Of a DNA stretch of 49,899 nt, positions 4,567 to 46,858 are shown one piece after another; positions within the stretch are counted from its first letter, which is position 1; every line of letters starts with the position of its first letter. The translations under genes were made by a program, and so were the position numbers. Location: positions 1-49,899 of the forward strand of contig JAJFGM010000569.1 of the NCBI GenBank assembly GCA_021776145.1, in the 5' to 3' direction. This DNA comes from Kiloniellaceae bacterium (lineage in GTDB: Bacteria; Pseudomonadota; Alphaproteobacteria; Kiloniellales; Kiloniellaceae). The notes under the pieces were generated by a model. It worked only from the letters and a program-made list of their open reading frames with translations, was not told the origin of the DNA and did not search any database.

Positions 4567-4610
4567 TTTTTTGCCGTCTCCGGAGTTGCTGGTTTTGCCG
4601 TTGACAGCTC

Positions 4611-7344: not shown

Positions 7345-7362
7345 AGACCAGAGATCAGAGGA

Positions 7363-7388: not shown

Positions 7389-7429
7389 CGGACAGGGATC
7401 AGAAGCGTCGGCGGTGAAGCGGGGGCGGC

Positions 7430-8472: not shown

Positions 8473-8582
8473 ATGGCACTGGAAGTGCCGATCAAGATAT
8501 AGCGATGGCTCGCACTTAGCAGCTAACTCACAGAAAATCCTATTCAGCGCCCACTCATATTGACAGGCGTGTTTTTTGCCGC

Positions 8583-11128: not shown

Positions 11129-11360
11129 TCGCGCCGCCGATTCCGGCCTGCGCTGTCTCGGCTGCGACCGCAGCGCCGCGACGCTTTCCGACCTGATCAC
11201 CTATTGCCCGCGCGCCAGGCACGAGAACTGCCCGGCGGCGGCGGCGCGGCGGTCCGAGGTTGGCGACGACTTCGCCGGCCTGGCGGCCTTGGCGCTGCAC
11301 AAGAACCACGAATGGAAGCGGCGCCAGGTCGCCGCCAGCCGGCGGGAGTGGCGGCGATGA
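11121..11360 (+). CDS. Small Cys-rich hypothetical protein
   Basis: 79 aa (CLGCDRS...CPRARHENCP). Its start overlaps the previous stop (ATGCCTGA). Confidence 0.4.
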   Translation: MPDRAADSGLRCLGCDRSAATLSDLITYCPRARHENCPAAAARRSEVGDDFAGLAALALHKNHEWKRRQVAASRREWRR

Positions 11361-11569
11361 CCGAGGACTGCGGACAGAAGACCGCTATCAGAGACTGCCG
11401 CGCGGCGGTCTTCACCTGCACGGCCTGCGAGCGCGCCGGCGCGACCTTGGGCGCGATCCTCGACCAGGGCTGCGACCGGATCGGCCACGACTGCCCAGTG
11501 AAAAGCCGGCTTTGCGCCGATCGGATCACCTTGTCGCAGGTCCGGCTGACGGGCGGGCGCTTTCCATGA
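11357..11569 (+). CDS. Small Cys-rich hypothetical protein
   Basis: 70 aa (CGQ..C..CTAC...C...C). ATGA overlaps at both ends. Confidence 0.4.
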   Translation: MTEDCGQKTAIRDCRAAVFTCTACERAGATLGAILDQGCDRIGHDCPVKSRLCADRITLSQVRLTGGRFP

Positions 11570-11904
11570 CGTTTCGGATCCAGGCCGTCGCGCCCGCCGG
11601 CGCGGGCCGCAACTTGGGGGAGGGTGCCGTGAGATATGAGGTCGAGAGCCTGACCAAGCGCGATTTCCGGATCCACAAGGCCGCCGGGGGCGTCGTCGAG
11701 GCGGTGGTCAGCGGCGACCGCGCCAACGCCTTGCGCGGGCGGTACCTGCATTTCAAGGGCCTGTCCGACGAGCTGGCCGACGCCTTCCTCGACGGGGTCT
11801 GCCTGTCGGCGTTGCACAAGGACGCGATCCGCGCGGATATGGGCTGCGGTTGCCAGGCGCAGGGAAGCGAGGTGGTGACCGTCAAGAGGTACGGCGGGGC
11901 ATGA
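11566..11904 (+). CDS. Hypothetical protein
   Basis: 112 aa from the internal ATG of ORF 11260..11904. ATGA coupling at both ends. Confidence 0.45.
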   Translation: MTFRIQAVAPAGAGRNLGEGAVRYEVESLTKRDFRIHKAAGGVVEAVVSGDRANALRGRYLHFKGLSDELADAFLDGVCLSALHKDAIRADMGCGCQAQGSEVVTVKRYGGA

Positions 11905-12308
11905 ACGCCGATACCCCGAGCCTCGCCGGTCTTTTGGGCGCCGCCGCCGGGGCGCTGCATCTGCGCGGCGAGGACTATCCGGCCTGCCCCTACCGGGCGC
12001 CGAACGCGCGCGACCAGGTCCGCCGGCGCGCCTGGTCGCGGGGCTTCCTGCTCGCCTTGGCCGGGCGGGTTTCACGGGAAACGGGGGCTTACTGTTTCAC
12101 GGGGGCGAAGGGCACGCGTCACGGCATGCGGCCGGATCGGCTGGTGTGGAGCGCGGACGAACTGCGGCTTTTGAGCAACGCGGCCGGGCGCGTGCCGCTG
12201 GTCGAGGTGGCGCGGCATTTGGGGCGCTCCTACCCGGCGGTGCGGATCCGGCTTTGTCGACTGCGCAAGGTCTCGGCGATCCCGCGCCAACGCGGGGAGG
12301 CGGCGTGA
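11901..12308 (+). CDS. Hypothetical protein with C-terminal HTH-like segment
   Basis: 135 aa. WSADELRLLSNAAGRVPLVEVARHLGRSYPAVRIRLCRL resembles a sigma-70 region 4 / GcrA-like HTH. Confidence 0.45.
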   Translation: MNADTPSLAGLLGAAAGALHLRGEDYPACPYRAPNARDQVRRRAWSRGFLLALAGRVSRETGAYCFTGAKGTRHGMRPDRLVWSADELRLLSNAAGRVPLVEVARHLGRSYPAVRIRLCRLRKVSAIPRQRGEAA

Positions 12309-12410
12309 ATGACCCCGGCCAGCAACAGAATTCGCGGGCTGCCGTCCGTGGATAGGGCGGTCATTTCCGACCGTCCTTCGCCCCTTGGGCGCAAAGCCTC
12401 CCTGTTGACT

Positions 12411-12480
12411 TCCCCCGCCTTCGCGCAGGCGCTTCGGCGCGGCTTGCCCCGCCGGAGCCTTGGCGAAGGCGGGGGCTTTT
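12411..12480 (+). terminator. Long hairpin plus T-tract after the small-gene operon; embeds REP-like copy 3 (12448-12473)
   Basis: Perfect 13-bp inverted repeat cccccgccttcgc(12411-12423)/gcgaaggcggggg(12464-12476), followed by cttttctt. Confidence 0.5.
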
Positions 12481-12495
12481 CTTGAAGGAGATGAC

Positions 12496-13206
12496 ATGAG
12501 CGAAAGCACGTCCGGCAAGACCGGGCACAACCTGGCCGGGGCACGGCTCTTGAGTTTTGTCGAGCGCGTTGAACGGCTGCGCGAGGAAAAGAAGGCGCTC
12601 AACGAAGACGAAAAGCTGGTCATGGCCGAGGCCAAGGTCGACGGCTTCGTGCCGGCCGGAATCCGCTATGTGGTGAAACAACGGGCCAAGGCGCCGCACG
12701 ACCGCGAGGAAGAGGCGGCGCTGCGCGATCTCTACATGGAGGCCTGCGGCATGGGCGACGCCGGGCCGCTGTTCCGCCAGGTCGGATTGATGGACGTCGA
12801 CATTGCCTCGCGCGAGGCGGTGACCGAGGCGCTGAAAGCCCTTGTGCCGGCCAACGGCGAAATCATCGTCAAGGTCGGCGGCAAGGCGGTGCGTCTTTGG
12901 CGCGACGAGGACGGCAAGGCGCAGAGCGAAGACTATGTCGAGCCGAAGCGCCGGGCCGCGCCGGCGGAGGCGAACTCGACGGTTCATAATCGCCCGGCGG
13001 CCGAGGTACCGGACGTCGACGCCGAGGGCGCGGCCGAGTTGGGCAAGGCCGCCTATACCGCTAACCGGCCGATCACGGCCAATCCCTTTCCCTTCGGCGA
13101 CAAGCGGCGGGGGATTTGGGACAAAGGCTGGCGCGCCGGATCCGGGACCGACGGCATGGGTCCTATGGACGACGGCGAGGACGAAGGCGACGGCGGCGGG
13201 GAGTGA
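12496..13206 (+). CDS. GapR-like (DUF2312) DNA-binding protein with Rmf-like C-terminal motif
   Basis: AAGGAG RBS at 12485-12490. N-terminus LLSFVERVERLREEKKALNEDEKLVMAEAKVDGFVPAGIRYVVKQR is the DUF2312 pattern. C-terminus ANPFPFGDKRRGIWDKGWRAG resembles the ribosome-modulation-factor motif. Acidic tail. Confidence 0.7.
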   Translation: MSESTSGKTGHNLAGARLLSFVERVERLREEKKALNEDEKLVMAEAKVDGFVPAGIRYVVKQRAKAPHDREEEAALRDLYMEACGMGDAGPLFRQVGLMDVDIASREAVTEALKALVPANGEIIVKVGGKAVRLWRDEDGKAQSEDYVEPKRRAAPAEANSTVHNRPAAEVPDVDAEGAAELGKAAYTANRPITANPFPFGDKRRGIWDKGWRAGSGTDGMGPMDDGEDEGDGGGE

Positions 13207-15830: not shown

Positions 15831-18257
15831 ATGACCGACACCGAACAGCTCCTCGAAATAGCGCGAAGAGGCCCAGATGCCTGGAATCGATGGCGACGGG
15901 ACAACCGCGACGAGGTGGTGGACTTTTCAGGCGTCGATTTTCGTCAAGAGGACCGTGTAGGCATCAATTTTTTGGGGTTCAAGTTCGGTAATGACGCTTG
16001 TTTTAGTGGCGCCAAATTTGGGGATCACAGCCGTTTCCGAGGTGTTCTTTTTGGAAACAACGCGGATTTTAGCGACGCGGTATTCGGTGCAGATGCCCGG
16101 TTTCAAGAATCAAAATTTGGCGCTGGCGCTAACTTCGAAAGGGCGAATTTCTACGGGGAGGCCCACTTTGAAGGCACAAAATTCGGCGATGAAGCCCAAT
16201 TCCGTAATGCAATATTAGGGCAAAATACTCATCTGGGCGGCACAACTTTTGGGAAAAACTCACGGTTCGATGGTGCAAATTTCGGTATTTGTGTTGAGCT
16301 GAAGGGGGCGATATTTGGAGAAGCTTCTTGTTTTCATAGTTGCAAATTCGGTAGAGAGGCCCTGTTTGATAATGCAGTTATAGGAGATGATTCGCGGTTC
16401 GAGGGCGCTGAGTTTGGTGACTTGGCGCAATTCCGCGGTACAAAGTTTGGGTCCCGTGTTCGTTTTGATAATATAATTATTGGATCAAAGGCGAATTTTG
16501 ATACCGCATCGTTTGGCGAGGAAACGCAGTTTTGTGGCGCGACGTTTGGCGGAGAAACCAATTTTGAGAATGTCATAATTGGCGATCGGGTCGGATTCAA
16601 AGGTGTAAAATTTGGAGATTCAGCAAATTTTGAGGCCACGACATTCGGAGAATATGTCGAATTTGATGCCTCAATTTTCGGCGATCTTACGTCTTTCAGG
16701 CACGCGATATTTGGGAACGATACCAGATTCGAGGCCGCGAAGTTCGGAGCCCGGACACGGTTTGAGGGTGCGACTTTTGGTGATGCCGCATGGTTCGCTC
16801 GCGCGACGTTTGGGGACTCAGCTAACTTCGCAGACGCGAAGTTCGGTGCGAGGGCGCGGTTTGAGGGCGCGGAATTCGGAAAAATAGCGTGGTTTAAGGG
16901 CACGAAGTTTGGCGAAGCGGCGCAGTTCGAGCGCGCGCAATTCGAAGATCAAAGCTGTTTCCAGGACGCGATATTCGGAGATGATGCTTGGTTCCACTCA
17001 GCAGAATTTGGCTACTCGCCAAGGTTCGAAGGCGTGATTTTTGGGCGCGACGCCAATTTTGGTGCCGCGTCGTTTGGAGCAATAGCGCGCTTCAGGGGCG
17101 CAACATTTGGGAACAGCGCAGATTTCGAAGATTCAACTTTTGGGGAGTCGGCCTGGTTCCAGGATGCGAAATTCGGGAGCATGGCCGGGTTCGAAGGTGC
17201 TTGGTTTGGTCCCTCAGCCCGGTTTGAAGGCGTGCAATTTGGGTTTCTCGCCAATTTTCAAGGGGCAACCTTCGAAAGTGAGGTGCGGTTCCATGGAGCG
17301 GCTTTCGAGCGTAAGGTCATTTTCGATGAGGTGACTTTCTTGGGGCCAGTTCACTTTGGCAGTGTGTCAGGAGTTGCTGAGTACGCCGACAGTCCAGAAA
17401 CGGAAGTGTCGTCGTCTGGGAGTGCGACAAACGATGCCGAGAGTGGCGCCCAACTTCATGACGCTGCCGCGAGGGTGGGTTCGGTTTCCTTTGCGGGAGC
17501 GCGGTTCGAAGGACTGGCCTATTTTCACGACTTGGATTTTCGCGGCGAAGCCAATTTCTCGAACGCCTGTTTTTCCGCTCCGCCCGATTTTCGTGCAACG
17601 CAACACCGCGAAAATCTCGATTGGATCGGTATTAAATTCGCGTTCGGCCCGCATGTCCGCTTTGGCCGCGCTTCCATTAATTGGAGCTGGACAGCTCAAA
17701 ACGACACAATCACACGCCTGCGACGGCTGAGAGGCATTGCAAACGAAATTCATGCGGTTGATGCGGAGCGCGACCTCTTCATCCTTGAACGCCAAGCGGA
17801 GCGTGGCGTCTTCTGGCGCGACTGGTGGCGGGGGGGATGGGGTTCATGGTTTACAGGGTGGTGGCGTCCGCTGTCTGCAACGGTGCTGATGTTTCTCTAT
17901 GTCTGTACTTCCAATTGCGGCCGCAGTTTATTGCTGCCCCTGGGATGGCTGGCTGCTTCGAACTGGGGTTTCTACCAGCTGTATGGATACCTCTATACCG
18001 TTCTGATCGACCGCCCATTGTTTATCGCGGTCAAAAAGGCGTTGTTTGACTTGACTTTTGCCAGCGCTTTACCGTTCGGCGCGACCGCCCGCCCGGCCTT
18101 TCAGTCTGCGATCAAGGTCCTCTTCGAGCAGGACAGCGGCAGCGCGATCGATATCCCATGGCAAATCCAAGCCGCTTCGGCAGCACAAGGAATCACAAAT
18201 CTCGTGCTCCTCTTCCTGCTCGGCCTCGCACTGCGCAACTACTTCAAGTTCAGGTAA
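15831..18257 (+). CDS. Giant pentapeptide-repeat protein fused to a C-terminal multi-TM, channel-like module
   Basis: 808 aa. The N-terminus LLEIARRGPDAWNRWRRDN is a typical pentapeptide-protein leader. About 95 consecutive pentads have a 10-residue super-period (AKFGDHSRFRGVLFGNNADF...). The C-terminus has hydrophobic helices (LSATVLMFLYV, LLLPLGWLAASNWGFYQLY, ITNLVLLFLLGLAL) and an LFDLTFASALPFGAT segment. Low GC. Confidence 0.9.
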   Translation: MTDTEQLLEIARRGPDAWNRWRRDNRDEVVDFSGVDFRQEDRVGINFLGFKFGNDACFSGAKFGDHSRFRGVLFGNNADFSDAVFGADARFQESKFGAGANFERANFYGEAHFEGTKFGDEAQFRNAILGQNTHLGGTTFGKNSRFDGANFGICVELKGAIFGEASCFHSCKFGREALFDNAVIGDDSRFEGAEFGDLAQFRGTKFGSRVRFDNIIIGSKANFDTASFGEETQFCGATFGGETNFENVIIGDRVGFKGVKFGDSANFEATTFGEYVEFDASIFGDLTSFRHAIFGNDTRFEAAKFGARTRFEGATFGDAAWFARATFGDSANFADAKFGARARFEGAEFGKIAWFKGTKFGEAAQFERAQFEDQSCFQDAIFGDDAWFHSAEFGYSPRFEGVIFGRDANFGAASFGAIARFRGATFGNSADFEDSTFGESAWFQDAKFGSMAGFEGAWFGPSARFEGVQFGFLANFQGATFESEVRFHGAAFERKVIFDEVTFLGPVHFGSVSGVAEYADSPETEVSSSGSATNDAESGAQLHDAAARVGSVSFAGARFEGLAYFHDLDFRGEANFSNACFSAPPDFRATQHRENLDWIGIKFAFGPHVRFGRASINWSWTAQNDTITRLRRLRGIANEIHAVDAERDLFILERQAERGVFWRDWWRGGWGSWFTGWWRPLSATVLMFLYVCTSNCGRSLLLPLGWLAASNWGFYQLYGYLYTVLIDRPLFIAVKKALFDLTFASALPFGATARPAFQSAIKVLFEQDSGSAIDIPWQIQAASAAQGITNLVLLFLLGLALRNYFKFR

Positions 18258-18264: not shown

Positions 18265-20073
18265 CTATTCGAATGGCCGCCCAAAATAGACCAGTGCCCA
18301 TAGTGCCAGCAGATAGACACTCACCAGCGACTGTATCCCCGAGACGACGCGCACCCAGCCTCTTGGCCGCAGGGTGTATTCTCGCGACTGCAGCCGGAGG
18401 ATCCAGTTCCCAACGTTGAGATCTCGCCAGCCGATATGGAAGGCCGAAAGGACGCTGAAATATAGGCCGTACCAGAAAATCGCGAGCAAGTTGTTGCGGT
18501 GGAATCGATCGACGATTGCGTCTTCTGCCAACACCGTGCCCTCTTCGGTCTTGCTGTCTTCGTCCAATCTCCCTTCCGGCCAAACCTGGAATAATCCGCC
18601 CCGGCCGGAATGCTTCGGCGATTGGGCAATGGGGTAGGTGTAAACACACCAAAAGACCAGGATCAGGAACCCGAGTATTTCTATCGGCCGCCCCGGGGAA
18701 TACCCCCAATCGCTCGTGAGTTCGAACAAAGTGTAGCTGAAAGCGCTTTCGATGGTAGGCGCTTTGCGCCGTTCGTTCCGCTTGATCAAAAAGGTCAGGT
18801 ATCTTTCTGCCTCCCGATCACCCGCCTCTTTGAGCTTCTTGCGGACTGTCACAAGCCCTTCCGGGAAATCAGCCGATCCCAGGGGCTCGAAGGCTGCGAG
18901 ATCCAGTAAATCCACGCCTACCAAAGAGGCATTGCTGAGTAGAGAGCCAGAGAAGATCGCGGCGGCGAGTTTGCTGTACTGTAAGTTCGCGCCTCTAAAG
19001 TCGGTATTGCTCAGATTCGTGTCTATGAGGTTGGCAGATTCGAGGGTGGCGTTCTGCAGCTCGGCGCGCTGCAGGTTGGCCTTTTGCAGCTCCGCGCCGG
19101 ATAGATCGGCCTTTTGCAGATTGGTGAAGCTCAGGTTGGCCATTTGCAGATTTGCGCGGAATAGGTTGGCCTCCTGCAAGTTGGCGAGGCTCAGGTTAGC
19201 CTCTTGCAATCTGGCGAGCTCTAGGTTGGCCTTCTGCAGATTGGCCTCGAATAGGATCGCCCCTAGCAGATCGGCGCGGCGGAGGTCGGCCTTTAGCAAC
19301 ACGGCTTCATCTAAGTCGGCATTCTGCAGGTTTGCGAAGCGCAGGTCGGCCTCTTGCAGGTTGGTGCGGCTCAGGTTGGCCTTTTGGAGTATTGTGCGCT
19401 GCAGGCTGGAATTTTCCAGATCGGCGTGCTGCAGGGCGGCCTTTTTCAGATTGGCGCTGAATAGGTTGGCCTCTCGTAGATTGGCGAAGAATAGGTTGGC
19501 CTCTTGCAGATTGGCGCCGCTCAAGTTGGCGTTTTGCAAGTCGGTGAAGCTCAGGTTGGTCTTTTTCAGGTCGGCGCGGGTCAGGTTGGTCTTCTGCAGG
19601 TTGGCCTTGAATAGGATCGCCCCTAGTAGGTCGGCGCGGAATAGGTTGGCCTCTTGCAGATTGGCGCCGCTCAGGTTGGCCTCTTGCAGATTGGCGCCGC
19701 TCAAGTTGGCGTTTTGCAAGTCGGTGAAGCTAAGGTTGGCCTTTTTCAGGTCGGCGCCGATCAGGTTGGTCTCTTGCAGATTGGCGCGGCTCAAGTTGGC
19801 GCCGCAAAGAATGGCCCGACCTGCTTTTGCGGAACCCTTCGACCAGTCTAAGTGGGCCTCAAGAATTGATTTCAGTTCTTGCGGGGTGATTCCTCTTCCA
19901 GCATAAGGACACTGTTCGTCCTTTGAATCGGCGCTCACTGTCGGCCCGGTGAAGCCGAACAAACCCGTCAAGATAACGGCAGCGCCAACGGCCGCTAAAA
20001 TCTGACGTTTCCACCGATGCTTCACATCACACTCCAGTGCGTGGCGTTCTTCGACCCTCGAAGCAAACCACAC
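18265..20073 (-). CDS. Pentapeptide-repeat protein with N-terminal membrane anchor/signal and C-terminal channel-like module
   Basis: 602 aa. N-terminal hydrophobic ILAAVGAAVILTGLFGF. About 60 canonical A(N/D)Lxx pentads (ANLQEANLSGANLQEANL...). The C-terminus has TSDWGYSPGRPIEILGFLILVFWCVY, LYFSVLSAFHIGWRDL and a final TM helix, IQSLVSVYLLALWALVYF. Its stop lies 7 nt from the stop of the convergent gene. Confidence 0.9.
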   Translation of the reverse strand: MWFASRVEERHALECDVKHRWKRQILAAVGAAVILTGLFGFTGPTVSADSKDEQCPYAGRGITPQELKSILEAHLDWSKGSAKAGRAILCGANLSRANLQETNLIGADLKKANLSFTDLQNANLSGANLQEANLSGANLQEANLFRADLLGAILFKANLQKTNLTRADLKKTNLSFTDLQNANLSGANLQEANLFFANLREANLFSANLKKAALQHADLENSSLQRTILQKANLSRTNLQEADLRFANLQNADLDEAVLLKADLRRADLLGAILFEANLQKANLELARLQEANLSLANLQEANLFRANLQMANLSFTNLQKADLSGAELQKANLQRAELQNATLESANLIDTNLSNTDFRGANLQYSKLAAAIFSGSLLSNASLVGVDLLDLAAFEPLGSADFPEGLVTVRKKLKEAGDREAERYLTFLIKRNERRKAPTIESAFSYTLFELTSDWGYSPGRPIEILGFLILVFWCVYTYPIAQSPKHSGRGGLFQVWPEGRLDEDSKTEEGTVLAEDAIVDRFHRNNLLAIFWYGLYFSVLSAFHIGWRDLNVGNWILRLQSREYTLRPRGWVRVVSGIQSLVSVYLLALWALVYFGRPFE

Positions 20074-20263
20074 TCTGACGCTCTAGTGCTAGCCACTTTC
20101 AACCAATAGGGGTGTGATCATTCGTACAGCCTAACGCGCCCATCTCAACTACGCCCGCTCCACCTTTCGCGGCCTCCCTTCCCGCCGGGCCGCGGGCCGA
20201 AAAATCGACGCCGCAATTCCCCTTGACTTCCATGAACTCTATTGACAATCTCTCACCACGTTG

Positions 20264-20304
20264 AAAAGCGCCCGGCCGGAGTGAAGATCCGCCGGGCGCT
20301 TTTG
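20264..20304. terminator. Bidirectional-looking intrinsic terminator in the 435-bp spacer
   Basis: aaaagcgcccggc...gccgggcgcttttg: 10-bp perfect stem (20267-20276 / 20291-20300) flanked by an A-run and a T-run. Confidence 0.5.
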
Positions 20305-20508
20305 TGTCTGGCCGGCGTGTATCGCGCGGGCCTGTCTCCACGTTCGAAGCGACAAACCACCGACGGCCGCTCGCTTCCGCGACGCGGCCGTCGACGCCTT
20401 TTTTTGTTTAGGATAAGTTGGGCATTCGTTGAACCAAGACGGTTGCTAATCTGTAATGACGCGGCAACGCTAGTCAGATGGAACGGACAGGGCTTGGAGG
20501 TAAGCACG

Positions 20509-21171
20509 ATGGCCGATAGCGGTGCAGCATTCTGGGCCGCCTTAGCCGCGTCATTCTCGGCGATCGCATCTGTCTCGATCTTTTTCGTTCAGCGACAAAA
20601 CCTGATCCAGTCAATCCGACCTGAAATTGATCTGCTTGACGTGAGTAGGCCAGAGGAAAGCAATGAACTCGTTTTCAAAAAGATTAAGAACATCGGCAGA
20701 GGCACGGCCCAAAGTATCCTGATTAATTCACTGGCTCTGCGTGGAACCGCACACTTATCGACCATTCATGTTCCAATCCTAGCAGCCGGCGACGAAGCGC
20801 AGGTTGATGCGAATCTTCGCTTTTATTGGAACAACGTTGAGCAAACGTCTGATAACAAGACAATTCCAGTGGCCATTAAGATTTCTTACTTGGATACAAG
20901 CGGTAATCGCTACGAGACAAGATACAATCTCCTAGCGTTTCAGTCGGTAGAGAAGACCATAATCGCTTGGTCGGTGGCGGCCCCGGGAGTATTGCTGGAC
21001 GACCGTACGACTATTAGGAAGTCTATGCGATTTCTGAAGTTTTCGGCTTGGCTTCAGCGAAGAATCACGAAGATCGGATACAGATACCCGCGGTTCAAAA
21101 ACATATATGAACGAGTTCACATACTCCTCTCCGAAACAAAGCGCCGAATTCGTTCAGCCTTAATTGGCTGA
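20509..21171 (+). CDS. Membrane-anchored hypothetical protein (N-terminal TM plus beta-rich domain)
   Basis: 220 aa from the ATG at 20509, with a GGAGG RBS at 20496-20500. N-terminal FWAALAASFSAIASVSIFFV. Low GC. The longer ORF from 20242 is Arg-rich upstream junk. Confidence 0.6.
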   Translation: MADSGAAFWAALAASFSAIASVSIFFVQRQNLIQSIRPEIDLLDVSRPEESNELVFKKIKNIGRGTAQSILINSLALRGTAHLSTIHVPILAAGDEAQVDANLRFYWNNVEQTSDNKTIPVAIKISYLDTSGNRYETRYNLLAFQSVEKTIIAWSVAAPGVLLDDRTTIRKSMRFLKFSAWLQRRITKIGYRYPRFKNIYERVHILLSETKRRIRSALIG

Positions 21172-36646: not shown

Positions 36647-38113
36647 ATGACCGTGTCCTTCGACTTCATCCCCGCCACGGTGCGGGTGCCCGGCGCCTAT
36701 GCCGAGTTCGATAACTCCCGCGCCTTGCGCGGTCTGCTGCCGACGGTGGCGCACCGCATCCTCGTGCTCGGCCAGCGCCTCGCCGCCGGCACGGTCGCCG
36801 CCGAGATCCCGACGCAGATCCTCACCGCGGCCCAGGCCGCCGAGGCCTTCGGCCGCGGCTCCATGCTGCACAGGATGTTCGGTGCTATCGAGGCGAACAA
36901 CGGTTTTACCCGCACCGACGTCATCGCCCTCGACGACGCGGTTGCCGGCGTCGCCGCGACCGGCTCGCTGGCGATCACCGGGCCGGCGTCGGCGGCCGGT
37001 ACCCTGGCCGTTTACATCGGCGGGCGCCGCGTCCGCGTTGCCGTCGCCGCCGCCGACGATGCCAACAGCGTCGCCGCGGCGCTGGCCGGCGCCATCAACG
37101 CCGATCTCGACCTGCCCGTCACGGCCGCCGCCGTGCTCGCCGACGTCAACCTGACGGCCCGCCACAAGGGCGAGAACGGCAATGACATCGATCTCCGGCT
37201 CAACTACTTCGACGAAGACCTGCCGGCCGGCATCGGGATCGCCGTCACCGCCATGGCCGGCGGCGCCGCCAACCCCGACGTCGCCGACGCCCTCGCGGCG
37301 ATCGGCGGGGTGCACTACAACCATATCGTCATGCCCTGGACCGACCCGGCGAACCTGACGGCGCTGACCACGGAACTCGCGACCAACTGGCAACCCACGG
37401 CACAGAAGGAAAGCCAGGCCTGGGCCGGCAAGGCCGGCACCGCCGCGGCGCTCTCGACCTTCGGCGCCGGGCTCAACTCGCCGCTGCTCTCGGTCGTTGG
37501 GCTTTACGATTCGCCCACACCGCCGGAAGAAATTGCAGCCGCTTACGCGGCGCGGGCTGCCTTCCACCTGGAAGCCGACCCGGCGCGGCCGCTCAACAAG
37601 CGGCCGCTGACCGGCGTGCTGGCGCCGCCCGCGGCTTCGCAGTTCACCTTCCAGGAGGCCAACATCCTGCTGCACGACGGCGTCACGCCTGGCGAGGTTC
37701 TGCGCGACGGCACGGTCGTAATCATGCGCGCCGTCACCACCTTCCAGACCGACTCCTTCGGCTTCGAGAACGTCTCCTATCTCGACGTCACGACGCCGGC
37801 GACCCTGGCCTTCCTGCGCCTGGACTGGCGCGCCCACATGAGCCAGCTCTACCCGAACCACAAGATCGCCGACGACGGCACCCGGGTCGACGCGGGCCAG
37901 GCCATCGCCACGCCCAACATGCTCAAGGCCAGCACCATCGCCCGGGCGCGGCTGTGGGAGGGTGCCGGCCTGGTCGAGGGTCTGGATCAGTTCAAGAAGG
38001 AACTGATCGTCGTTCGCAATCAGGGCGACGCCACGCGCGTCGACTTCGTCATTCCGCCCGACCTGGTCAACGGCCTGCACATCATGGCCGCCAAGTTCCA
38101 GTTCCTGCTCTAG
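36647..38113 (+). CDS. Contractile tail sheath protein
   Basis: 488 aa. N-terminus VRVPGAYAEFDNSRA...RILVLGQ is typical of Mu gpL/P2 FI-type sheaths. Followed by the tube gene. Confidence 0.9.
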   Translation: MTVSFDFIPATVRVPGAYAEFDNSRALRGLLPTVAHRILVLGQRLAAGTVAAEIPTQILTAAQAAEAFGRGSMLHRMFGAIEANNGFTRTDVIALDDAVAGVAATGSLAITGPASAAGTLAVYIGGRRVRVAVAAADDANSVAAALAGAINADLDLPVTAAAVLADVNLTARHKGENGNDIDLRLNYFDEDLPAGIGIAVTAMAGGAANPDVADALAAIGGVHYNHIVMPWTDPANLTALTTELATNWQPTAQKESQAWAGKAGTAAALSTFGAGLNSPLLSVVGLYDSPTPPEEIAAAYAARAAFHLEADPARPLNKRPLTGVLAPPAASQFTFQEANILLHDGVTPGEVLRDGTVVIMRAVTTFQTDSFGFENVSYLDVTTPATLAFLRLDWRAHMSQLYPNHKIADDGTRVDAGQAIATPNMLKASTIARARLWEGAGLVEGLDQFKKELIVVRNQGDATRVDFVIPPDLVNGLHIMAAKFQFLL

Positions 38114-38179: not shown

Positions 38180-38542
38180 ATGGCAAACAAAGCCATTGCC
38201 GGGGTCGTCTACGTGCGCATCGACGGCACGACCGTATCGGTGCGCGGCAACGTCAAGTGCTCCATGGCCAGCGAGTCGCGCGAGTCGATCGCCGGCGTCG
38301 ACGGCGTGCATGGTCATAAGGTCATCCCCGCCGTTCCCTTCATCGAGCTCGACGTCTCGGACGGCGACGAGGCCGACTGGACCGTCTTGGCCGCGGCCAA
38401 GGGCGTCGAGATCCAGGCCGAGCTGACCTCGGGCAAGGTGGCGGTCCTGAGCGAGGCCGTCCAGGTCAACCAGCTCGAGGTCGACGGCGTCGAGGGCCAG
38501 GCCACCCTGCGCTTCGAAGGCCGCCACGGGGAGTGGCAGTGA
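38180..38542 (+). CDS. Tail tube protein
   Basis: 120 aa. GVVYVRIDGTTVSVRGNVKCS...ATLRFEG fits the Mu gpM-like tube family and position. Confidence 0.85.
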   Translation: MANKAIAGVVYVRIDGTTVSVRGNVKCSMASESRESIAGVDGVHGHKVIPAVPFIELDVSDGDEADWTVLAAAKGVEIQAELTSGKVAVLSEAVQVNQLEVDGVEGQATLRFEGRHGEWQ

Positions 38543-38892
38543 TGAATAAAGCGCCCGATGCCGCCGAGGTCGAGGCCCCGGAAGACAGCGTCACCGTGAC
38601 GCTGAGCACACCCGTCAAGGCCTTCGGAAAGCGCGACGACACCGTCACTCTGCGCCGGCCCCTGGGCAAGGACATCAAGATCTGCGGCTTTCCCTTGCGG
38701 ATCCATGGCGACGGCTCCTTCGAGTTCATCGCGCACATTATCGCCCGCTACATCGAGCGCCTCGGCGGCATGACGGCGGGGGCCGTCGACGCCCTGCCGC
38801 CGGAGGACTGGATTGCCCTGCAGAGCGCGGTGACGGATTTTTTCAAGACGTCCCCGACCTCTGGTTCCGAGGACAGCCCGGAACTGGACTAA
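38542..38892 (+). CDS. Tail assembly chaperone (zero-frame product)
   Basis: ATG overlaps the tube gene stop (TGATG); an alternative GTG lies at 38533. Position between tube and tape measure. Contains a slippery heptamer near its 3' end. Confidence 0.75.
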   Translation: MNKAPDAAEVEAPEDSVTVTLSTPVKAFGKRDDTVTLRRPLGKDIKICGFPLRIHGDGSFEFIAHIIARYIERLGGMTAGAVDALPPEDWIALQSAVTDFFKTSPTSGSEDSPELD

Positions 38893-39032
38893 AGCTCTTC
38901 GAGGAGGCCGTCGGGGACCTCGCCTATCTTTTCCATGCCCTTCCGCACCAGCTCCTCGAGCGCGGCCTGGACGACATTCTTTTCGACCTGCTTCAGGCAC
39001 GCAGGATTGTTTCAGAGCTGCAGAAAGCGTGA
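38542..39032 (+). CDS. Tail assembly chaperone, -1 frameshift extension product (G-T / E-E' analogue)
   Basis: After the slip the frame reads FFQDVPDLWFRGQPGTGLKLFEEAVGDLAYLFHALPHQLLERGLDDILFDLLQARRIVSELQKA*. Confidence 0.55.
38838..38844 (+). other. -1 programmed frameshift slippery heptamer T_TTT_TTC
   Basis: In the zero frame the sequence reads gaT TTT TTC aag. The -1 frame is open from here to TGA at 39030-39032. Confidence 0.6.
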
Positions 39033-39306
39033 GGCTAGGGGTGATTGCGGAAAAGGACCAAAGGACACCCCAAGCAATCGGCCAGAATGTCAGTTTACCG
39101 TCCCAAACTCACCGTCGTCGAAGTCTGGGCAGCAGGTCCGGGTATAGCCAGAAGCGGGCCTTTGTTGGGTAGAATGCCACTCCTTCAAATACCCAGATGC
39201 CCTATTTCTCTTACCAAATCCTGGATCCGCTTGAGGGAGGGCAGGTCACGCCGCCACCGCCTAAATCGACCCGAGGGCCGCCACCGCGGGGTTAAGAACA
39301 TTGCCC

Positions 39307-40434
39307 TTACTCTTGTCTCGGTTTTTCTCTCCGTCTTTCTTGGATTTCCAGAAAATCTCGGGCCGCGGCAAGTTGGTCTTCCGACATCTCCACTTCCATC
39401 ATCTCTTTGAACTTAGGTTCCCACCTATTGATGATGGCATTAAGGGAAATCTCATCGGTTCGCCCGACATTAACTTGGCGTTTGATCAAGGGGGCCAATT
39501 CAGGCGCGAGTTCTTTGTCCTCGAACATTCTCTTGAATATCCAAAGATAGACATCGACTAATTCTAAACCGGCGCTTTCTGTCCCTGAAGAAAAGCCAAT
39601 TTCTGTTTGAGGCATGCCCCGAAAATCGAGCGCAGGAAGTCCTGGACCATTCGCCAGGTTCTCCCCACTCAATCTTGCGTACCAATCTGCGGTTTGTGCT
39701 TGTGCCTTGTTGAATTGAGATTGTCGATCCACAACGATTCCCAACGACTTTCGCGAGGAGTTTAAGAGTCGCTGCGCTATTCCGATCATCACGCTTTGAA
39801 ACCCGATGGCATTCGGCATGACGGAAACAGCGTCAGATTTACTTTGGACGTTGTAGGAGACCTCGTTGGTATTTTCGATGGTCCACTTAAGCGCATCCGT
39901 CACAATTTCTCGGGTGCGCGCATCAGGTAGGTTTTGGGAACGCCGGACTAATTCCTCGCAGACTTGCCTTAGTATTTCTTCGGCCTTCGCGTTGTTTGGA
40001 GAAATTCGGGCAGCCCACGCAGCCCTTAAAAGCTTCTCGTCAAATAGCTTTGCCAGACGCACTAGCAGCATATAGCGAAGAGGCGTCCAATAGGAAGCCC
40101 AGGGGACTGCTGGGTTCATTCCCTGGTCGAAAACTTGGTCAAAAAAACAAATGGCTGCGTGGTCGATCTTCTGGAGGCGGTAAAAATCGAACCGGAGATC
40201 GAATTTCTTCTGCACCCTGACTAGATCAGGTGCAATTTCGCTCAATCCAGCGTTTCCGATTTCACTGGCATGCAGGCGGTCAACGCCTAGTCGTTTTCGG
40301 GTCTTCACCAAAAATGGTTCGGCAAGGACATCCAAATTTGCGCGACTGCAAAGCGTTCCATAGAAAAGCATCGGCTGATCGCGGTCGAACAGGTTTGGGC
40401 CGGTATGGCCGCTTTCATCCACGTAAAAATACAC
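39307..40434 (-). CDS. DUF3800 domain protein; low-GC cargo gene between tail chaperone and tape measure
   Basis: 375 aa. N-terminus MYFYVDESGHTGPNLFD is the DUF3800 signature (hydrophobic-DESG). Opposite strand to the late operon. Confidence 0.8.
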   Translation of the reverse strand: MYFYVDESGHTGPNLFDRDQPMLFYGTLCSRANLDVLAEPFLVKTRKRLGVDRLHASEIGNAGLSEIAPDLVRVQKKFDLRFDFYRLQKIDHAAICFFDQVFDQGMNPAVPWASYWTPLRYMLLVRLAKLFDEKLLRAAWAARISPNNAKAEEILRQVCEELVRRSQNLPDARTREIVTDALKWTIENTNEVSYNVQSKSDAVSVMPNAIGFQSVMIGIAQRLLNSSRKSLGIVVDRQSQFNKAQAQTADWYARLSGENLANGPGLPALDFRGMPQTEIGFSSGTESAGLELVDVYLWIFKRMFEDKELAPELAPLIKRQVNVGRTDEISLNAIINRWEPKFKEMMEVEMSEDQLAAARDFLEIQERRREKPRQE

Positions 40435-40695
40435 GGTGCAAACTCTCTAGCAGTCGTCGCGGTAAGGCAGAAGCTTTCCAAATGAACGCAAATGCACGAG
40501 CGACGCAAGTATAGGTTAGAGGCTTTGCAGCCTTGGCCTGCCCCTACGAACGATACCAGTTCTATATTAGAACCGTTTGCATTGGGAAAGGTCGATCAGG
40601 CCGCAGCCCCCGTGTAGCAGAGGTCGGCTCAGGGTCAAAAGCCGCGGTCCCAACTGACACGCCCGTAGGGGTAAAGTACCCCAGATAGTGGACAT

Positions 40696-40856
40696 GGATT
40701 TTTCGGCCAATCCTGGGCCAATGGCTCCAGGGAGTGCGCGACGAATCCGTAAAACGCCTCGACGATACCGCCGGGGACCTCGCTTACTTCTTTCGTGTGT
40801 TGCCGCACCAGGTCCTCGATCGGGACCTGGGCGACATCATCTTCGACCTGAACTAG
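40696..40856 (+). pseudogene. Remnant second copy of the chaperone slippery-site and frameshift-extension segment
   Basis: ggatttttcgg (one T fewer than at 38835), then at the same spacing IFRPILGQWLQGVRDESVKRLDDTAGDLAYFFRVLPHQVLDRDLGDIIFDLN*. 40770-40850 aligns ungapped with 38910-38990 at 62 of 81 positions (my count). Confidence 0.6.
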
Positions 40857-40866
40857 GGGATCCGAA

Positions 40867-42669
40867 TTGCCGAAACGCTTCGAAATCGCGACTGAGATCA
40901 CCGCCGTCGCGCGTGGCGCGGCGCGGGTCTTCCGCAACGTGCGGCGCAACTTCGCCGGCATGTCCCGGGACGCGAAAAAGCTGAACCGCGCCTGGGAAGG
41001 GCTGTCGCGCTCCGGCGGTCAGCTCGGCCGCAACATCGGCGGCGTCGGCCTGGGGCTGTCTGCCGCGACCGTCGGCGCCTTCGCACTGGCCAAGTCGTCG
41101 GCCGCGGTCTCCTCGGAGATCGTCAACGCCGCCGACAAGCTGGGCTTCGGCGTCGAGCGCTACCAGGAGCTGGTCTTCGCCGCCGACCAGGCCAGCGTGT
41201 CCCAGGGCAAGATGGAGATCGCCCTGCAGCGTCTGGTCAGAAAGCAGGGGCAGGCGGCCAACGGCAACAAGGAGATGACCGACCTTTTCGACGCCTTGGG
41301 CGTCTCGGTCCGCGACACCGCCGGCAATCTGAAGGCGCCCAATGCCCTGCTCGGCGACCTGGCGGAGGCCTTTTCAAAGATCGAGGACCCGGCGCTCCGG
41401 GTCCTGGCGGCGCAGAAGCTTTTCGACTCCGAGGGCGTCGACTTCGTCCGCGTGCTGGAGGGCGGCGTCGCCGGCCTGGAGAAGATGGCAACGGAGGCGC
41501 ACCGCACCGGCCAGGTCCTCTCCGAGGCCGGGCAGCGCGACGCCAAGATCTTCGACGAGAAGATGGCCTCGCTGACCGGCACGGTGAAGGCCTTCGCCCG
41601 CGACCTGACCGGACAGATGGCGCCGGCCCTGACCGAGACCGGCACGGCGCTGCAGGATTACCTGGTCGAGAACCGCGCCGATCTGGTCGCCCGCTTCGGC
41701 GCGGCCGTCAAGGTCGCCGGCGACATCGCCCGCGGCTTCCAAGGCGCCATCGAGACCATCGCCCCGACTGTCCGCCGCATCGTCGAGGCCATGGGCGGCT
41801 GGGAGCGCGTCGGCCTGATCGTCGCGGCCCTGCTCGGCGCCAAGCTGCTGCTGCCGGTCGTTGGCCTCGGCTTTCACCTGGCGAGCCTGATCGGCACCGC
41901 CGCCAAGCTTTCCAAGACCCTTGCGCTCCTCACACTGGCCAACCCGGTCTTTGCCGCCATCGCCGCGCTCGCCGCCGGCGCCGCGCTGATCATCGCCAAC
42001 TGGGATTCCATCGCCGGCTTCTTCTCCGACCTTTGGGGCCGCGTCACCGACTCCTTCGACCGCGGCGTCATCGACGGCCTCGTCTCGCTGGTCGCCGAGC
42101 TCAACCTGGTGACGCTCTTCGCCTCGGCCGTCGACGGCCTGGCCGGGAAATTCCTCGGCCTCGACCTCGGCCTGGCGGACGCGGTCAAGAGCTCGATCGA
42201 GGCCGCGCTGGGTTTTGTCCGCGACGGCTTCGGCGAGATCCGCGGCGCCATCGAGGGCGCCATCGGCGGCGCCATGGCCTTTGTCCGGCGCGGCTTCGCG
42301 GGCCTCCGCCTGGTCGTGAGCAACGCCGCGATTTTCCTGCTCGAAAAGGTCCAGGGCGTCCTCGGCGCGCTGCCGTCCTTTGCCCTCGACGCCGCCGGCA
42401 TCGACACCGCCGGCCTTGCCGGCACCTTGGAGGCCTTGCGCCGCGCGCGCGGCGAGGACCAGGCTCTGCTGGCCGGCGCGCGCGGCGGCGGTGGCCCCGG
42501 TGGCGGCTCGACATCGCCCTTGGCGGCGGCGGCGCAGCGCGTGCGCACCGAAGTCGTGATCGTCGGCGAGAACCTGCCGCCGGGATTGCGGCTGGAGCCG
42601 CGCGACAGCTCGGCCGACGACCTGACGATCGAGGTTGGCGCCTCGCTGGCCGGGACGGGCCGCCTCTGA
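40867..42669 (+). CDS. Tail tape measure protein (TTG start)
   Basis: 600 aa. The core ADKLGFGVERYQELVFAADQASVSQGKMEIALQRL...LFDALGVSVRDTAGNLK is TMP-like. Ala/Gly-rich hydrophobic C-terminal half. Confidence 0.88.
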   Translation: MPKRFEIATEITAVARGAARVFRNVRRNFAGMSRDAKKLNRAWEGLSRSGGQLGRNIGGVGLGLSAATVGAFALAKSSAAVSSEIVNAADKLGFGVERYQELVFAADQASVSQGKMEIALQRLVRKQGQAANGNKEMTDLFDALGVSVRDTAGNLKAPNALLGDLAEAFSKIEDPALRVLAAQKLFDSEGVDFVRVLEGGVAGLEKMATEAHRTGQVLSEAGQRDAKIFDEKMASLTGTVKAFARDLTGQMAPALTETGTALQDYLVENRADLVARFGAAVKVAGDIARGFQGAIETIAPTVRRIVEAMGGWERVGLIVAALLGAKLLLPVVGLGFHLASLIGTAAKLSKTLALLTLANPVFAAIAALAAGAALIIANWDSIAGFFSDLWGRVTDSFDRGVIDGLVSLVAELNLVTLFASAVDGLAGKFLGLDLGLADAVKSSIEAALGFVRDGFGEIRGAIEGAIGGAMAFVRRGFAGLRLVVSNAAIFLLEKVQGVLGALPSFALDAAGIDTAGLAGTLEALRRARGEDQALLAGARGGGGPGGGSTSPLAAAAQRVRTEVVIVGENLPPGLRLEPRDSSADDLTIEVGASLAGTGRL

Positions 42670-42685: not shown

Positions 42686-43966
42686 ATGACCTGGCGTGAC
42701 GACTTCCGGCCGGCCTCCTGGCGCGGCGTGGCCTTCCACGTCGAGGCGCACGATAGGGGCAGCGGCCACAGCCAGGAGACCCATCTCTTCCCGCGCGCCG
42801 AGGCGTCCGAGTCCTCGCCGGAACGGCCCGACCACTACGTCGAGGACCTCGGCCGCGAGCCCGATCTCTACCAGGTCGAGGGCTACGTCGTCGGTGACGA
42901 CTACCTGACCGCCGCCGCCGAGCTCGACGCCGCCATGCGCCAGCCCGGTGCGGGCACCCTGGTGCATCCCTATCTGGGCGAGCTGACGGTCAAGCCATCG
43001 ACTTGGCGGCGGCGGGAAGATCGCCGCGAGGGCGGCCTGGCGCGCTTTACCCTGAACTTCACCGAGCCCGGCCGCGACAGCAATCCGGCGCCGCGCGTCG
43101 ATACCCAGGCCCAGGTCGACCTGGCGGCCGACCGGGCGGTCGTCTTGACCGAGGCACGCTTCGTAGAGACCTACGAGGTCGAGGGCCGGCCCGGCTTCCT
43201 GGCCGAGGCCGCCTGCGGCATTCTGCAAGAGGCTGCGGCGGCGGCCGACCGGGTCCTGCAAGCGTTGCCGCCCGGCGTCCAGGCGGCCGGTTCCGTGGCG
43301 CTCGACGTCGCCCTCTTCGCACTGGACGTGGCCCAGTCCGGCCCGGGCGCCCTGTTGCGCGATCCCGTGGCCCTGGCCGCCCGCACCAGCGGCGTGACCG
43401 CCGGCCTGGCGGGGCTGCCCACCACGGCCCAATCGGACGCGGCGGGGCTGACCACGCGTCTGCGCCAGGGAGACCTGGGGCCGTTGCGCAGCTTGACCGA
43501 ATTCGGCGGCCAGCTTGCGCCTGTGGCGGCGGTGACCGCGACACGCCTGCAGCAGGGCCTCAACCAGCAGGCCCTGGTCTCGCTGGTGCGCCAGGCCGCC
43601 ACCATCGGCCTGACGCGGTCCGCGCGCGACGTGCTGCCGGCCTCCTACGACGACGCCGTGCGCCTGCGCGACAGCCTCGACGGCCTGCTCGAGGCGCAAA
43701 TCACCGATGCCGGCGACCGCGGCGACGATGCCGCCTTCGAGGCGCTGTCGGAACTGCGCGGCCGCATGGTCGCCGACCTGACAACGCGCGCCGCCAACCT
43801 CGTGCGCATCGTGCCGCGGGTGTTGCGCCAGGCACAGCCGGCCCTGGTTCTTGCCTACGACCTTTACGAGGACGCCCTGCGCGATGCCGAACTGGCGGCG
43901 CGCAACGGCATTCGCCATCCCGGCTATCTGCCCGGCGGCCGCGACCTGGAGACCCTCGGCCGATGA
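42686..43966 (+). CDS. DNA circulation protein (Mu gp43-like)
   Basis: N-terminus WRDDFRPASWRGVAFHVEAHDRGSGHSQETHLFP...YVEDLGREPDLYQVEGYVVGDDY is the family signature. Confidence 0.85.
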   Translation: MTWRDDFRPASWRGVAFHVEAHDRGSGHSQETHLFPRAEASESSPERPDHYVEDLGREPDLYQVEGYVVGDDYLTAAAELDAAMRQPGAGTLVHPYLGELTVKPSTWRRREDRREGGLARFTLNFTEPGRDSNPAPRVDTQAQVDLAADRAVVLTEARFVETYEVEGRPGFLAEAACGILQEAAAAADRVLQALPPGVQAAGSVALDVALFALDVAQSGPGALLRDPVALAARTSGVTAGLAGLPTTAQSDAAGLTTRLRQGDLGPLRSLTEFGGQLAPVAAVTATRLQQGLNQQALVSLVRQAATIGLTRSARDVLPASYDDAVRLRDSLDGLLEAQITDAGDRGDDAAFEALSELRGRMVADLTTRAANLVRIVPRVLRQAQPALVLAYDLYEDALRDAELAARNGIRHPGYLPGGRDLETLGR

Positions 43967-45970: not shown

Positions 45971-46858
45971 TTATGAATGAGACTGAGGTCTGTCGTATAG
46001 CCATCGTCGATATTTTTCGAGACCAGGAAGCGCCTCTCGTAAATGTCTGGAGGGTCTTTCAGCTCGCACCAAGCTAACTAACGTTGGCACCGACATCGTT
46101 GCAACTGCCTGTCCAGCGTCGGCGCCCTGTGCTCGTTGGAGATGGTGAAACGTTGCCTTCGTCATGAATTCTGAGGAACTGGCCTTCAGCTCGCCGATTA
46201 GCCGATAGGTGAACTGATAGACAAGATTCCCATATTCGATCACCTCTTCGGCGGACGGAATGTATCCCTTGTGAATTACGTCATTTCTGAACGCACTCCA
46301 AGTCGGTGTATCTCCCCGGCTACGGCCATCCAACTCGGGTCTTGCCTCAAGAATTAGGGGCTCAAGCGGCTTTTTGTTTTCAACAAGGTAGAAAAACAGG
46401 AAGGCGCCAATTTGTCGTTCAGATTGCTTAGAAATCGGGGCCCACGCTTCGCTGAACTGCTCGTAGGTGATTCCATGCTTGAGCGAGACGACGAGAATGT
46501 AATACTCGAAGAAACGTTCAAGCGATGCGGCGGTGCTTGAGACTGCCTCCCGTGTATAGCCGTCGAGCAAAGCCATTGCACCCAAATCAAATAGAATCTC
46601 AAATTTCTGCTCTTGGATGGCCGTGACGGTAACGTGACCCCGAGAGCACGTGACCTCGTATAGACCGTCATCACGCAATTCGACCGAATTTGCCAACTCG
46701 GGCGGCTGTCCATCCACTTCAAGGCACTTCATGCAGGAGGTGCGCAGTCGCATTGTGTCCTTCCGTGCAACTTCTTCTCTTCGTGGCCGGCATTGACCGA
46801 GTTTTTTGACGCGCCGGTCTCCTCGAATGAACGACACGCCGTCAACCTCGATTTTCAT
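45971..46858 (-). CDS. Zinc-ribbon plus HEPN-motif protein; low-GC cargo gene between gp45 and gp46
   Basis: 295 aa. An alternative start at 46753 gives 260 aa; both starts have RBS-like purine runs. N-terminal CMKC...CSRGH. C-terminal WSAFRNDVIHKGYIP contains an R-N-x3-H (Rx4H) HEPN-type motif. Opposite strand to the late operon. Confidence 0.55.
   Translation of the reverse strand: MKIEVDGVSFIRGDRRVKKLGQCRPRREEVARKDTMRLRTSCMKCLEVDGQPPELANSVELRDDGLYEVTCSRGHVTVTAIQEQKFEILFDLGAMALLDGYTREAVSSTAASLERFFEYYILVVSLKHGITYEQFSEAWAPISKQSERQIGAFLFFYLVENKKPLEPLILEARPELDGRSRGDTPTWSAFRNDVIHKGYIPSAEEVIEYGNLVYQFTYRLIGELKASSSEFMTKATFHHLQRAQGADAGQAVATMSVPTLVSLVRAERPSRHLREALPGLEKYRRWLYDRPQSHS

Follow-up and report, generated by a model that had tools for sequence, protein, structure and literature searches.

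The window analysed here, a 49,899-nucleotide stretch of a Kiloniellaceae bacterium genome (GenBank assembly GCA_021776145.1, contig JAJFGM010000569.1), contains a prophage in which a gene for a DUF3800-family protein lies antisense between the tail assembly chaperone and tape-measure genes, bracketed by two diverged copies of the chaperone frameshift segment. Past its left end the prophage runs from a lambda-type portal into a contractile tail module of the Mu/SfV type. In this module the sheath (36647-38113) and tube (38180-38542) genes precede that of chaperone G, a Phage_TAC_7 protein (Pfam PF10109, 47.1 bits) encoded on the plus strand at 38533/38542-38892, directly 3' of the tube gene as in relatives; the ATG at 38542, with GGGGAG ahead of it, is the likely start. 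The gene for the tape measure protein (TMP) occupies 40867-42669 of the same strand (phrog_8462, E=2.9e-37). It starts at a TTG codon after AGGGGA, and the resulting N-terminus, MPKRFEIATEITAV, agrees with those of the relatives compared (Paraburkholderia phage IPK and the metagenomic loci L089 and L091). Downstream are a DNA-circulation protein gene (42686-43966) and then baseplate genes. The 1.83 kb between chaperone and TMP genes holds one real open reading frame (ORF), the intact 375-codon DUF3800 gene at 39307-40434 on the minus strand. The GC content is 0.48-0.55 over 39200-40700 compared with 0.65-0.75 on either side, and that of the DUF3800 coding sequence (CDS) is 0.496, compared with 0.65-0.71 for the G, tube, sheath and tape-measure genes.

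Comparison with related tail modules identifies the DUF3800 gene as an insertion, as the first-pass annotation of this DNA had proposed. The relatives comprised 80 IMG/VR tail modules collected by sheath alignment, the three closest metagenomic relatives and phage IPK, and the junction could be measured, that is the TMP located, in 63 loci. From the end of the sheath gene to the start of the TMP gene these span 738-1057 nt (median 834), as against 2754 nt here. None of the 63 related Mu-type modules, the three closest included, has an insert between G/T and TMP, and in the three closest relatives and phage IPK the chaperone unit directly abuts the tape-measure gene. The locus therefore shows what is expected of a moron: two genes that adjoin each other in relatives are separated by an additional one, whose base composition differs from its surroundings.

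The same comparison bears on the further proposal that the junction is a recurrent site of cargo exchange in this phage group. The unrelated siphovirus HK97 has its gene 15 at this very junction, and a further antisense ORF of low GC content, within the baseplate genes, indicates that the present phage tolerates inserts in its tail operon. However, alignment of the junction with related prophages brought no other cargo to light at any of the 63 measurable sites, and neither phage arm has a close public relative in which an exchange could be seen. Moreover, in other prophages the same cargo family sits elsewhere: among tail genes downstream of TMP, after a gpD-type protein, or beside an integrase. 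A hotspot is thus largely refuted for the available relatives, and we regard it as very unlikely.

Two copies of the frameshift segment

The copies, each made up of the end of G, a slippery run and a -1 extension, extend over 38821-39035 and 40682-40895 in the same orientation. In copy 1 the run GGATTTTTTC (38835-38844) is read in the zero frame as GAT TTT TTC and contains the heptamer T_TTT_TTC at 38838-38844 (plus strand, G zero frame), where a programmed -1 frameshift would convert G to GT. A TTTTTTC run is found at the equivalent position in relatives L089 and L090. The -1 frame that follows, the T extension (T1), is intact at 38844-39032 on the plus strand; it encodes 62 aa, from QDVPDLW to GDLAYLFHALPHQLLERGLDDILFDLLQARRIVSELQKA, ends at TGA 39030-39032 and matches phrog_11318. 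In a multiple alignment copy 1 is collinear over its full length with the T extensions of 16 relatives, the C-terminal QA.RI..E helix included, and in tblastx comparisons it matches the G-to-TMP interval of many relatives. With a heptamer contiguous with G and a full-length T domain, copy 1 is by its sequence the working copy, with frameshifting predicted.

Copy 2 begins with a G remnant at 40682-40704 (plus strand) that consists of the last seven or so G codons and the slippery run. This remnant is identical to 38821-38843 at 16 of 23 nt, at an offset of 1861. Its run, GGATTTTTC at 40696-40704, has one T fewer than that of copy 1. Reinsertion of the lost T gives a G frame of ..QIVDMDFFGQ.., which recalls the C-terminal chaperone motif seen as LIMGFFGQG in phage IPK and EVVGFFGES in L090. 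The T frame of copy 2 (40704-40895, plus strand; RPILGQW to GDLAYFFRVLPHQVLDRDLGDIIFDLN) is open as far as TAG 40854-40856, continues beyond it as GIRIAETLRNRD to a stop codon and overlaps the start of the tape-measure gene. The TAG falls in a conserved Gln column, which is CAG in copy 1 and Q in most relatives, and GIRIAETLRNRD fits the RI..E helix of the T family, such that the ancestral frame would have ended at 40895, within the overlap. In phage IPK, L089 and L091 the T stop likewise overlaps or abuts the TMP start; here this holds for the dead copy 2 and not for copy 1. Both copies conform to the pattern drawn from T1, copy 2 and the 16 related modules (FF..P...W...GDLAY.FHF.PSEL..M..DEL.FW..QA.RI..E), and the multiple alignment bears out the earlier view that the second copy is homologous to chaperone frameshift extensions. 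Copy 2 is thus a pseudogene: the body of G is missing, its slippery run has lost one base and its T frame is interrupted by a stop codon.

It could alternatively be argued that copy 2 still serves the phage, by encoding a T-domain peptide of its own (40 aa, from GTG 40734) or by acting as a leader that regulates translation of the tape measure. Its frame is open for 51 codons, its sequence is conserved and it ends 10 nt before the tape-measure start. However, AGGGAG stands only 1 nt upstream of GTG 40734, the TAG removes the C-terminal helix conserved in all relatives, and there is no G domain, by which T is tethered in known systems. We consider a surviving function highly improbable.

The similarity of the copies is well beyond chance. 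Their local alignment scores 80, compared with 17.8 +/- 2.2 (maximum 27) for shuffled sequences and at most 30 elsewhere in the window. Repeat searches returned 38890-38990 against 40750-40850 (75% over 101 nt, offset 1860) and 38821-38842 against 40682-40703 (offset 1861); the one-base shift in register between the two parts arises because the T run has six T in copy 1 and five in copy 2. An exact recount reproduced the 62 of 81 nt identities first noted between 38910-38990 and 40770-40850. The existence of the two copies was likewise upheld, although the homology proved longer than had been claimed, reaching from about seven codons before the slippery run to the stop codon of copy 1. The final 42 nt of the repeat are weakly similar (17 of 42 identical, p about 0.02). 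At the protein level, the T-frame peptides are 49% identical over 43 aa without gaps (BLASTP, E=1e-14), and both match phrog_11318.

A gapped alignment of the 3' ends, in which a ribosome-binding site and TTG at 39033-39056 are matched to 40853-40878, was set aside in favour of the ungapped one, which fits the family alignment. Since the gapped solution is also possible, the left breakpoint is bracketed between 39035 and 39150; the right one lies at about 40681. On the gapped solution, segment 39033-39056 (CTAGGGGTGATTGCGGAAAAGG), with its weak resemblance to 40853-40878, may be a remnant of a ribosome-binding site and tape-measure start.

How far, and in what manner, the copies have diverged is informative about their history. 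Overall they differ at 26-36% of nucleotides, with 26% in the core (codons 23-50) and 48% in the first 22 codons, yet they align without indels over 51 codons in the T frame; in the core, amino-acid identity is 64% and dN/dS about 0.28. In a neutral simulation with the same density of substitutions, the observed amino-acid identity was attained in 2.6% of runs (p=0.026). The absence of indels together with the simulation suggests that the copies diverged as working genes in two lineages, rather than by duplication in situ and neutral decay. According to the latter explanation, insertion at staggered breaks or replication slippage doubled about 215 nt of one phage, after which the downstream copy decayed neutrally. 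Direct repeats around the insert do have the look of a target duplication, and copy 2 carries inactivating lesions, namely the lost T and the TAG. Nevertheless, neutral decay sits poorly with copies that have diverged to this extent and still show no indels, a constrained core and an identity seldom reached in the simulation. It would also need far more time than appears to have elapsed, since the cargo gene is intact and its cassette is still 93% identical to a free-standing relative, which points to a much younger event. Duplication in situ is accordingly an improbable origin for the repeat. The reading of the repeat as a scar of recombination, put forward in the first-pass annotation, is supported with moderate confidence by copies that are diverged yet constrained.

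The inserted gene, its protein and its family

The core mobile cassette can be placed at 39220-40466 (minus strand) and consists of the DUF3800 CDS with 87 nt downstream and 32 nt upstream. Over these 1247 nt it has 86.6% nucleotide identity to an island (L001) in an alphaproteobacterial metagenome-assembled genome, which carries an integrase, an HTH_17/AlpA-type gene, a Toprim-DUF3987 primase and a tRNA, followed by an M78 peptidase and DUF4411. A somewhat longer segment, 39151-40561, is 93% identical to a 1410-nt metagenomic contig (L005), and the upstream boundary of the cassette, near 40466-40468, recurs in a further sequence (L006). Within the left flank of the insert (39033-39219), 39151-39219 is common to L005 according to the blastn boundaries; the flank has no similarity to the phage loci and is not significantly structured (z = -0.07). 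The right flank (40467-40681), which is the upstream region of the DUF3800 gene, shares 40467-40561 with L005 and has a fold z of -1.85. At 40559-40573, 125 nt before the DUF3800 start, is a perfect palindrome, GTTCTATATTAGAAC, possibly an operator. The right junction of the insert coincides exactly with a hairpin, GGGGTAAAGTACCCC (40668-40682), that has a perfect stem of 6 bp. Ends of the integron-cassette (attC) or terminal inverted-repeat type were considered and rejected: the sole inverted repeat that brackets the CDS is 71% complementary over 24 nt, and there is no R''/R' pair. As the DUF3800 gene is oriented against the operon, it would require separate transcription.

The suggestion that two related phages delivered the cargo finds no backing in these matches, since the closest relatives of the cassette are in an integrase/primase island and short metagenomic contigs and not in phages. 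The wider distribution also speaks against delivery by a phage: no member of the subfamily was found in 50,697 phage records, whereas 2,190 PLSDB plasmids (about 3%), mostly enterobacterial and conjugative, carry one.

The encoded protein matches the DUF3800 family (Pfam PF12686) above the gathering threshold, at 23.8 bits for a cut-off of 21, with residues 2-302 placed on profile positions 1-148/149; its homologues carry the same assignment in precomputed annotation. All 69 invariant residues of the family are retained and dN/dS is 0.18-0.35, values that indicate an intact gene under purifying selection. The invariant residues include D6-E7 and, towards the C-terminus, E291-L-V-D294, an ExxD with E in place of the Q of QxxD, both acidic residues of which are invariant. 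An AF2 model (pLDDT 91.3, pTM 0.87) gives the order E2-8, E22-30, E81-88, H89-101, [insertion], E232-236, H242-254, E279-282, H288-304. This fits the RNase H-like order b1-b2-b3-a1-b4-a2-b5-a3, for which carboxylates are expected on b1, a1, b4 and the last helix; the invariant residues here are D6/E7, D99/D103, D236 and E291/D294. Strand 1 carries D6-E7, strand 4 ends with D236, and the following helix bears E291/D294. In the model a helical insertion (about 130 aa) interrupts the predicted core, and about 70 aa of helices form a tail at its C-terminal end. When the model was searched against BFVD with Foldseek, the sole significant match was a DUF3800 protein of Siphoviridae sp. ctPJC19 (E=6.4e-4, probability 1.00, target TM-score 0.64). 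The protein is probably an RNase H-like nuclease with a part in the conflicts that mobile elements wage with one another.

Homologues of about 375 aa number some 980, are about 55% identical and extend through Proteobacteria and beyond. Relatives of the cargo, ranging from about 47 to 93% identity, are located in an integrase island, on plasmids and in a few other prophages. On IncF plasmids the homologue lies between vapBC and ccdAB-resD-repE, beside Tmn (2224 bits), PDC-S06 (949 bits) or a HEPN nuclease. In the individual examples L181 and L182 (Escherichia coli IncF) and L179 (Klebsiella IncR), a 47-48%-identical homologue occupies the variable region from vapBC to ccdAB-resD-repE, with Tmn, PDC-S06, or a HEPN nuclease and a hypothetical protein as neighbours. 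Elsewhere the neighbours include HEPN/AAA_31, IS elements, a reverse transcriptase and a CapP/RmrA-like M78 peptidase, and over 79 genomic loci there is no conserved partner gene. In locus L178 (3683-7131) a 60%-identical homologue is 830 nt from a divergent RVT_1 reverse transcriptase (494 aa), for which a retron-like pairing or a group II intron are both possible. In eight enterobacterial loci (L137, L143, L144, L146, L147, L149, L150 and L154), about 120 nt directly upstream of the DUF3800 start are conserved at 68-88% identity; this may be a shared leader or promoter, or mere relatedness. No structured partner RNA was apparent, in that the flanks are not unusually folded and show no conservation over 77-79 loci beyond enterobacterial kinship. 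Searches of Rfam gave no family match for the insert even at E<=10, and none at the gathering threshold for 11 loci of the subfamily.

A homologue is carried by 23 IMG/VR contigs. One of these loci, L190, is an independent insertion of the same cargo family into a tail operon: the homologue (8001-9143, GC 0.54 against 0.67) is antisense within the minus-strand tail genes of an unrelated, high-GC, siphovirus-type prophage, between those for TMP (9812-13168) and phrog_2913 (9234-9815) on one side and for a tail assembly protein (7078-7917) on the other. In L191-L193 the homologue is just after a P2-type tail module, and in L184 and L187 it adjoins an integrase.

By analogy with these neighbourhoods, a role for the protein in defence or exclusion is plausible. 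A different possibility is that it is not a defence effector but has a selfish or maintenance function, such as processing of its element's own nucleic acid, an addiction module or anti-defence, or that it is a passenger in a decaying prophage. The IncF homologues do lie among toxin-antitoxin and replication/partition genes, the protein corresponds to no PADLOC model and always occurs alone, and other DUF3800 proteins have been linked to structured RNAs. Set against this, immediate neighbours include bona fide defence genes (Tmn, PDC-S06 and the CapP/RmrA-like M78 peptidase), other branches of DUF3800 are effectors or accessories of retrons and of Cas12a2/a3 systems, and strong purifying selection across phyla is hard to reconcile with a mere passenger. 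A function outside defence is possible, though we doubt it.

Several other features of the prophage may be noted. The element is integrated beside a tRNA-Lys(TTT) gene (3445-3520), downstream of gyrA, and its left end is made up of a gene for an Abi_alpha-domain protein (3676-4566, minus strand) and one for a tyrosine integrase (4611-5684, minus strand). The region 3445-5684 is the probable attachment site, and the Abi_alpha-domain gene, situated at the end of the prophage, would be another accessory gene expressed in the lysogen. Around the tRNA the DNA has 83.5% identity to a stretch of another sequence (L002). A low-GC stretch (0.49-0.57) contains two convergent genes for large pentapeptide-repeat proteins (15831-18257, plus strand, 808 aa; 18265-20073, minus strand, 602 aa), followed by a 309-aa ORF (20242-21171) that has no family match. 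The second antisense ORF of the tail operon (45971-46858, minus strand, 295 aa, GC about 0.53) breaks up the baseplate genes between a gp45/46-like gene and the gene at 47066 and Baseplate_J genes, the counterparts of which are contiguous in L091. It has no Pfam or NCBIfam match, and flanking repeats were looked for and none found.

Origin of the joint

Taken together, the locus is best explained as a moron: the single-gene DUF3800 cassette was probably acquired horizontally, antisense in the late tail operon at the boundary of GT and the tape-measure gene, with the duplicated segment as the scar of recombination between two lineages. In such a scheme, illegitimate ('sloppy') recombination would have fused the genomes of two phages that had diverged from each other, or incoming DNA with that of a resident phage, and about 1.65 kb of foreign DNA would have been captured at the joint. 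The left arm would end just past a complete unit of G, slippery site and T, and the right arm would begin about seven codons before the slippery site of a second G-T unit, diverged by roughly 25-35%, with its own tape-measure gene still attached. The cargo itself would travel as a stand-alone gene among plasmids, integrative islands and prophages, often beside defence genes. One consequence is that translational coupling of T and TMP would be broken for the working GT, now 1.83 kb from TMP, and late transcription would have to cross an antisense gene; TMP would then initiate from its own AGGGGA-N6-TTG. The cargo protein would most likely be expressed from the prophage and cleave the nucleic acid of competing mobile elements, in defence or exclusion.

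Several points weigh against this account. The case for two lineages is thin: as no donor lineage was found, it depends on some 50 codons within the locus itself, with p 0.02-0.03. A word-indexed search of 5.8 billion proteins with the chaperone and the fused GT retrieved only the query itself, the best relatives of the sheath are 57-62% identical, and for TMP the best non-self matches are 37-42% identical among 1.84 billion representatives, with one 24% match in metagenome contigs. The outer parts of the insert, 39033-39150 and 40562-40681, could not be traced to any source. Because the prophage insertions L190, L191 and L193 all lack flanking duplications, the scar is not a general signature of movement of the cassette. 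The prophage may, moreover, be defective. As to the cargo, no sigma-70 consensus was found for the DUF3800 gene in a scan for that one promoter type and terminator-like sites are at chance level, so that its expression from the prophage is an assumption. No RNase H-like structure in the PDB was retrieved by Foldseek (best E=0.72) or by a sequence profile search; the RNase H assignment therefore draws on the order of secondary structure, the invariant acidic residues and, chiefly, the literature. Similarly, no defence family of PADLOC-DB 2.0 matches the protein at E<=1.

Other searches for relatives of the phage arms gave a similar picture. The sheath had no match by 8-mers in genome and viral contigs and matches of only 66-69% by blastn against phages, and exact or degenerate DNA patterns for the T core and the upstream palindrome had none in viral contigs. 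A mosaic breakpoint was also sought from per-gene identities, in which L089-L091 stand out for sheath and tube and not for circ, gp44 and bpJ. As the loci were chosen by sheath similarity and all identities are low, this was not relied upon.

If the moron account is correct, the locus provides an unusually legible record of moron acquisition. The persistence of a duplicated, diverged frameshift segment implies a joint made by non-homologous recombination that has not yet been tidied, a step that is postulated in models of phage mosaicism and seldom seen. It also draws attention to a lone-gene DUF3800 subfamily, moving among plasmids, islands and prophages beside defence genes, as a reasonable candidate for a one-gene nuclease defence. 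It is tempting to go further and to propose, tentatively, that the stand-alone DUF3800 proteins of about 375 aa are a single-gene nuclease of mobile elements, serving defence or exclusion, that is very widespread and has gone unrecognised. Were that so, the window would record a recent capture of such a gene by a phage, in which the chaperone segments of both parents can still be read. Current understanding is otherwise unchanged: the site is that of the first moron, and for the family an RNase H fold, nuclease activity and a link to defence had been predicted before.

Comparison with known systems

DUF3800 proteins have been described as effectors or accessories of type VII retrons (PMC7736814), and TPR-DUF3800 proteins accompany Cas12a2/Cas12a3 and VI-F loci (PMC10910872, PMC13594972, PMC12669027); the N-terminal D-E and C-terminal QxxD motifs were defined in the retron work (PMC7736814). 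The present protein belongs to the same Pfam family and has in common with them the D-E and (Q/E)xxD motifs, the predicted RNase H fold and the links to defence and mobile elements. By contrast, the insert contains no reverse transcriptase, msr/msd, CRISPR array, Cas gene or TPR domain, no partner emerged from the 79 loci, and the core here is split by the helical insertion and extended by the helical tail. A second connection is with structured RNAs, since the DUF3800-I to -XI, drum and skipping-rope motifs adjoin DUF3800 genes in either orientation (Weinberg et al. 2017, PMC5737381). Such an RNA could be accommodated in the non-coding flanks of the insert (about 270 and about 250 nt), but the insert has no Rfam match, and these flanks are neither unusually structured nor conserved across loci.

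With regard to hotspots, temperate elements of the P2/P4 type reportedly have set positions at which the anti-phage genes vary (Rousset et al. 2022). At the present site none of the 63 relatives has other cargo, whereas the closest homologue (87%) does lie in the cargo region of an integrase/AlpA/primase island, which is reminiscent of that arrangement.

A further comparison is with tail chaperones produced by a programmed -1 frameshift of the lambda G/GT type (Levin et al. 1993; Xu et al. 2004). Like lambda, the prophage has an XXXYYYZ heptamer near the 3' end of the chaperone gene and a conserved overlapping -1 ORF, located between the tube and tape-measure genes. Unlike lambda, it has a second, dead slippery run and extension 1.86 kb downstream, and the usual overlap or abutment of T stop and TMP start is broken for the working copy.

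The closest parallel to the insert as a whole is gene 15 of HK97, which lies between the chaperone and tape-measure genes and is the first moron, for which the word was coined (Juhala et al. 2000; Cumby et al. 2012; PMC3594210). Its product, a small inner-membrane protein made by the prophage, excludes superinfecting phages, and the gene has its own promoter and terminator (PMC3594210). Both loci have an extra gene of deviating GC content in the tail operon, at the same chaperone/TMP junction, that is absent from relatives. They differ in that the gene described here encodes a 375-aa predicted nuclease, is antisense with no detectable promoter or terminator, and is flanked by a 215-nt heterologous duplication.

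It is this last feature that relates the locus to the Hendrix/Hatfull model, in which the mosaic 'novel joints' of phage genomes arise by illegitimate recombination. The two parental lineages were not found in public data, and recombination is here deduced from the scar alone. In its form, however, the joint corresponds well: a module junction at a gene boundary that retains a leftover partial gene of a second lineage is what would be expected soon after sloppy recombination, before trimming.

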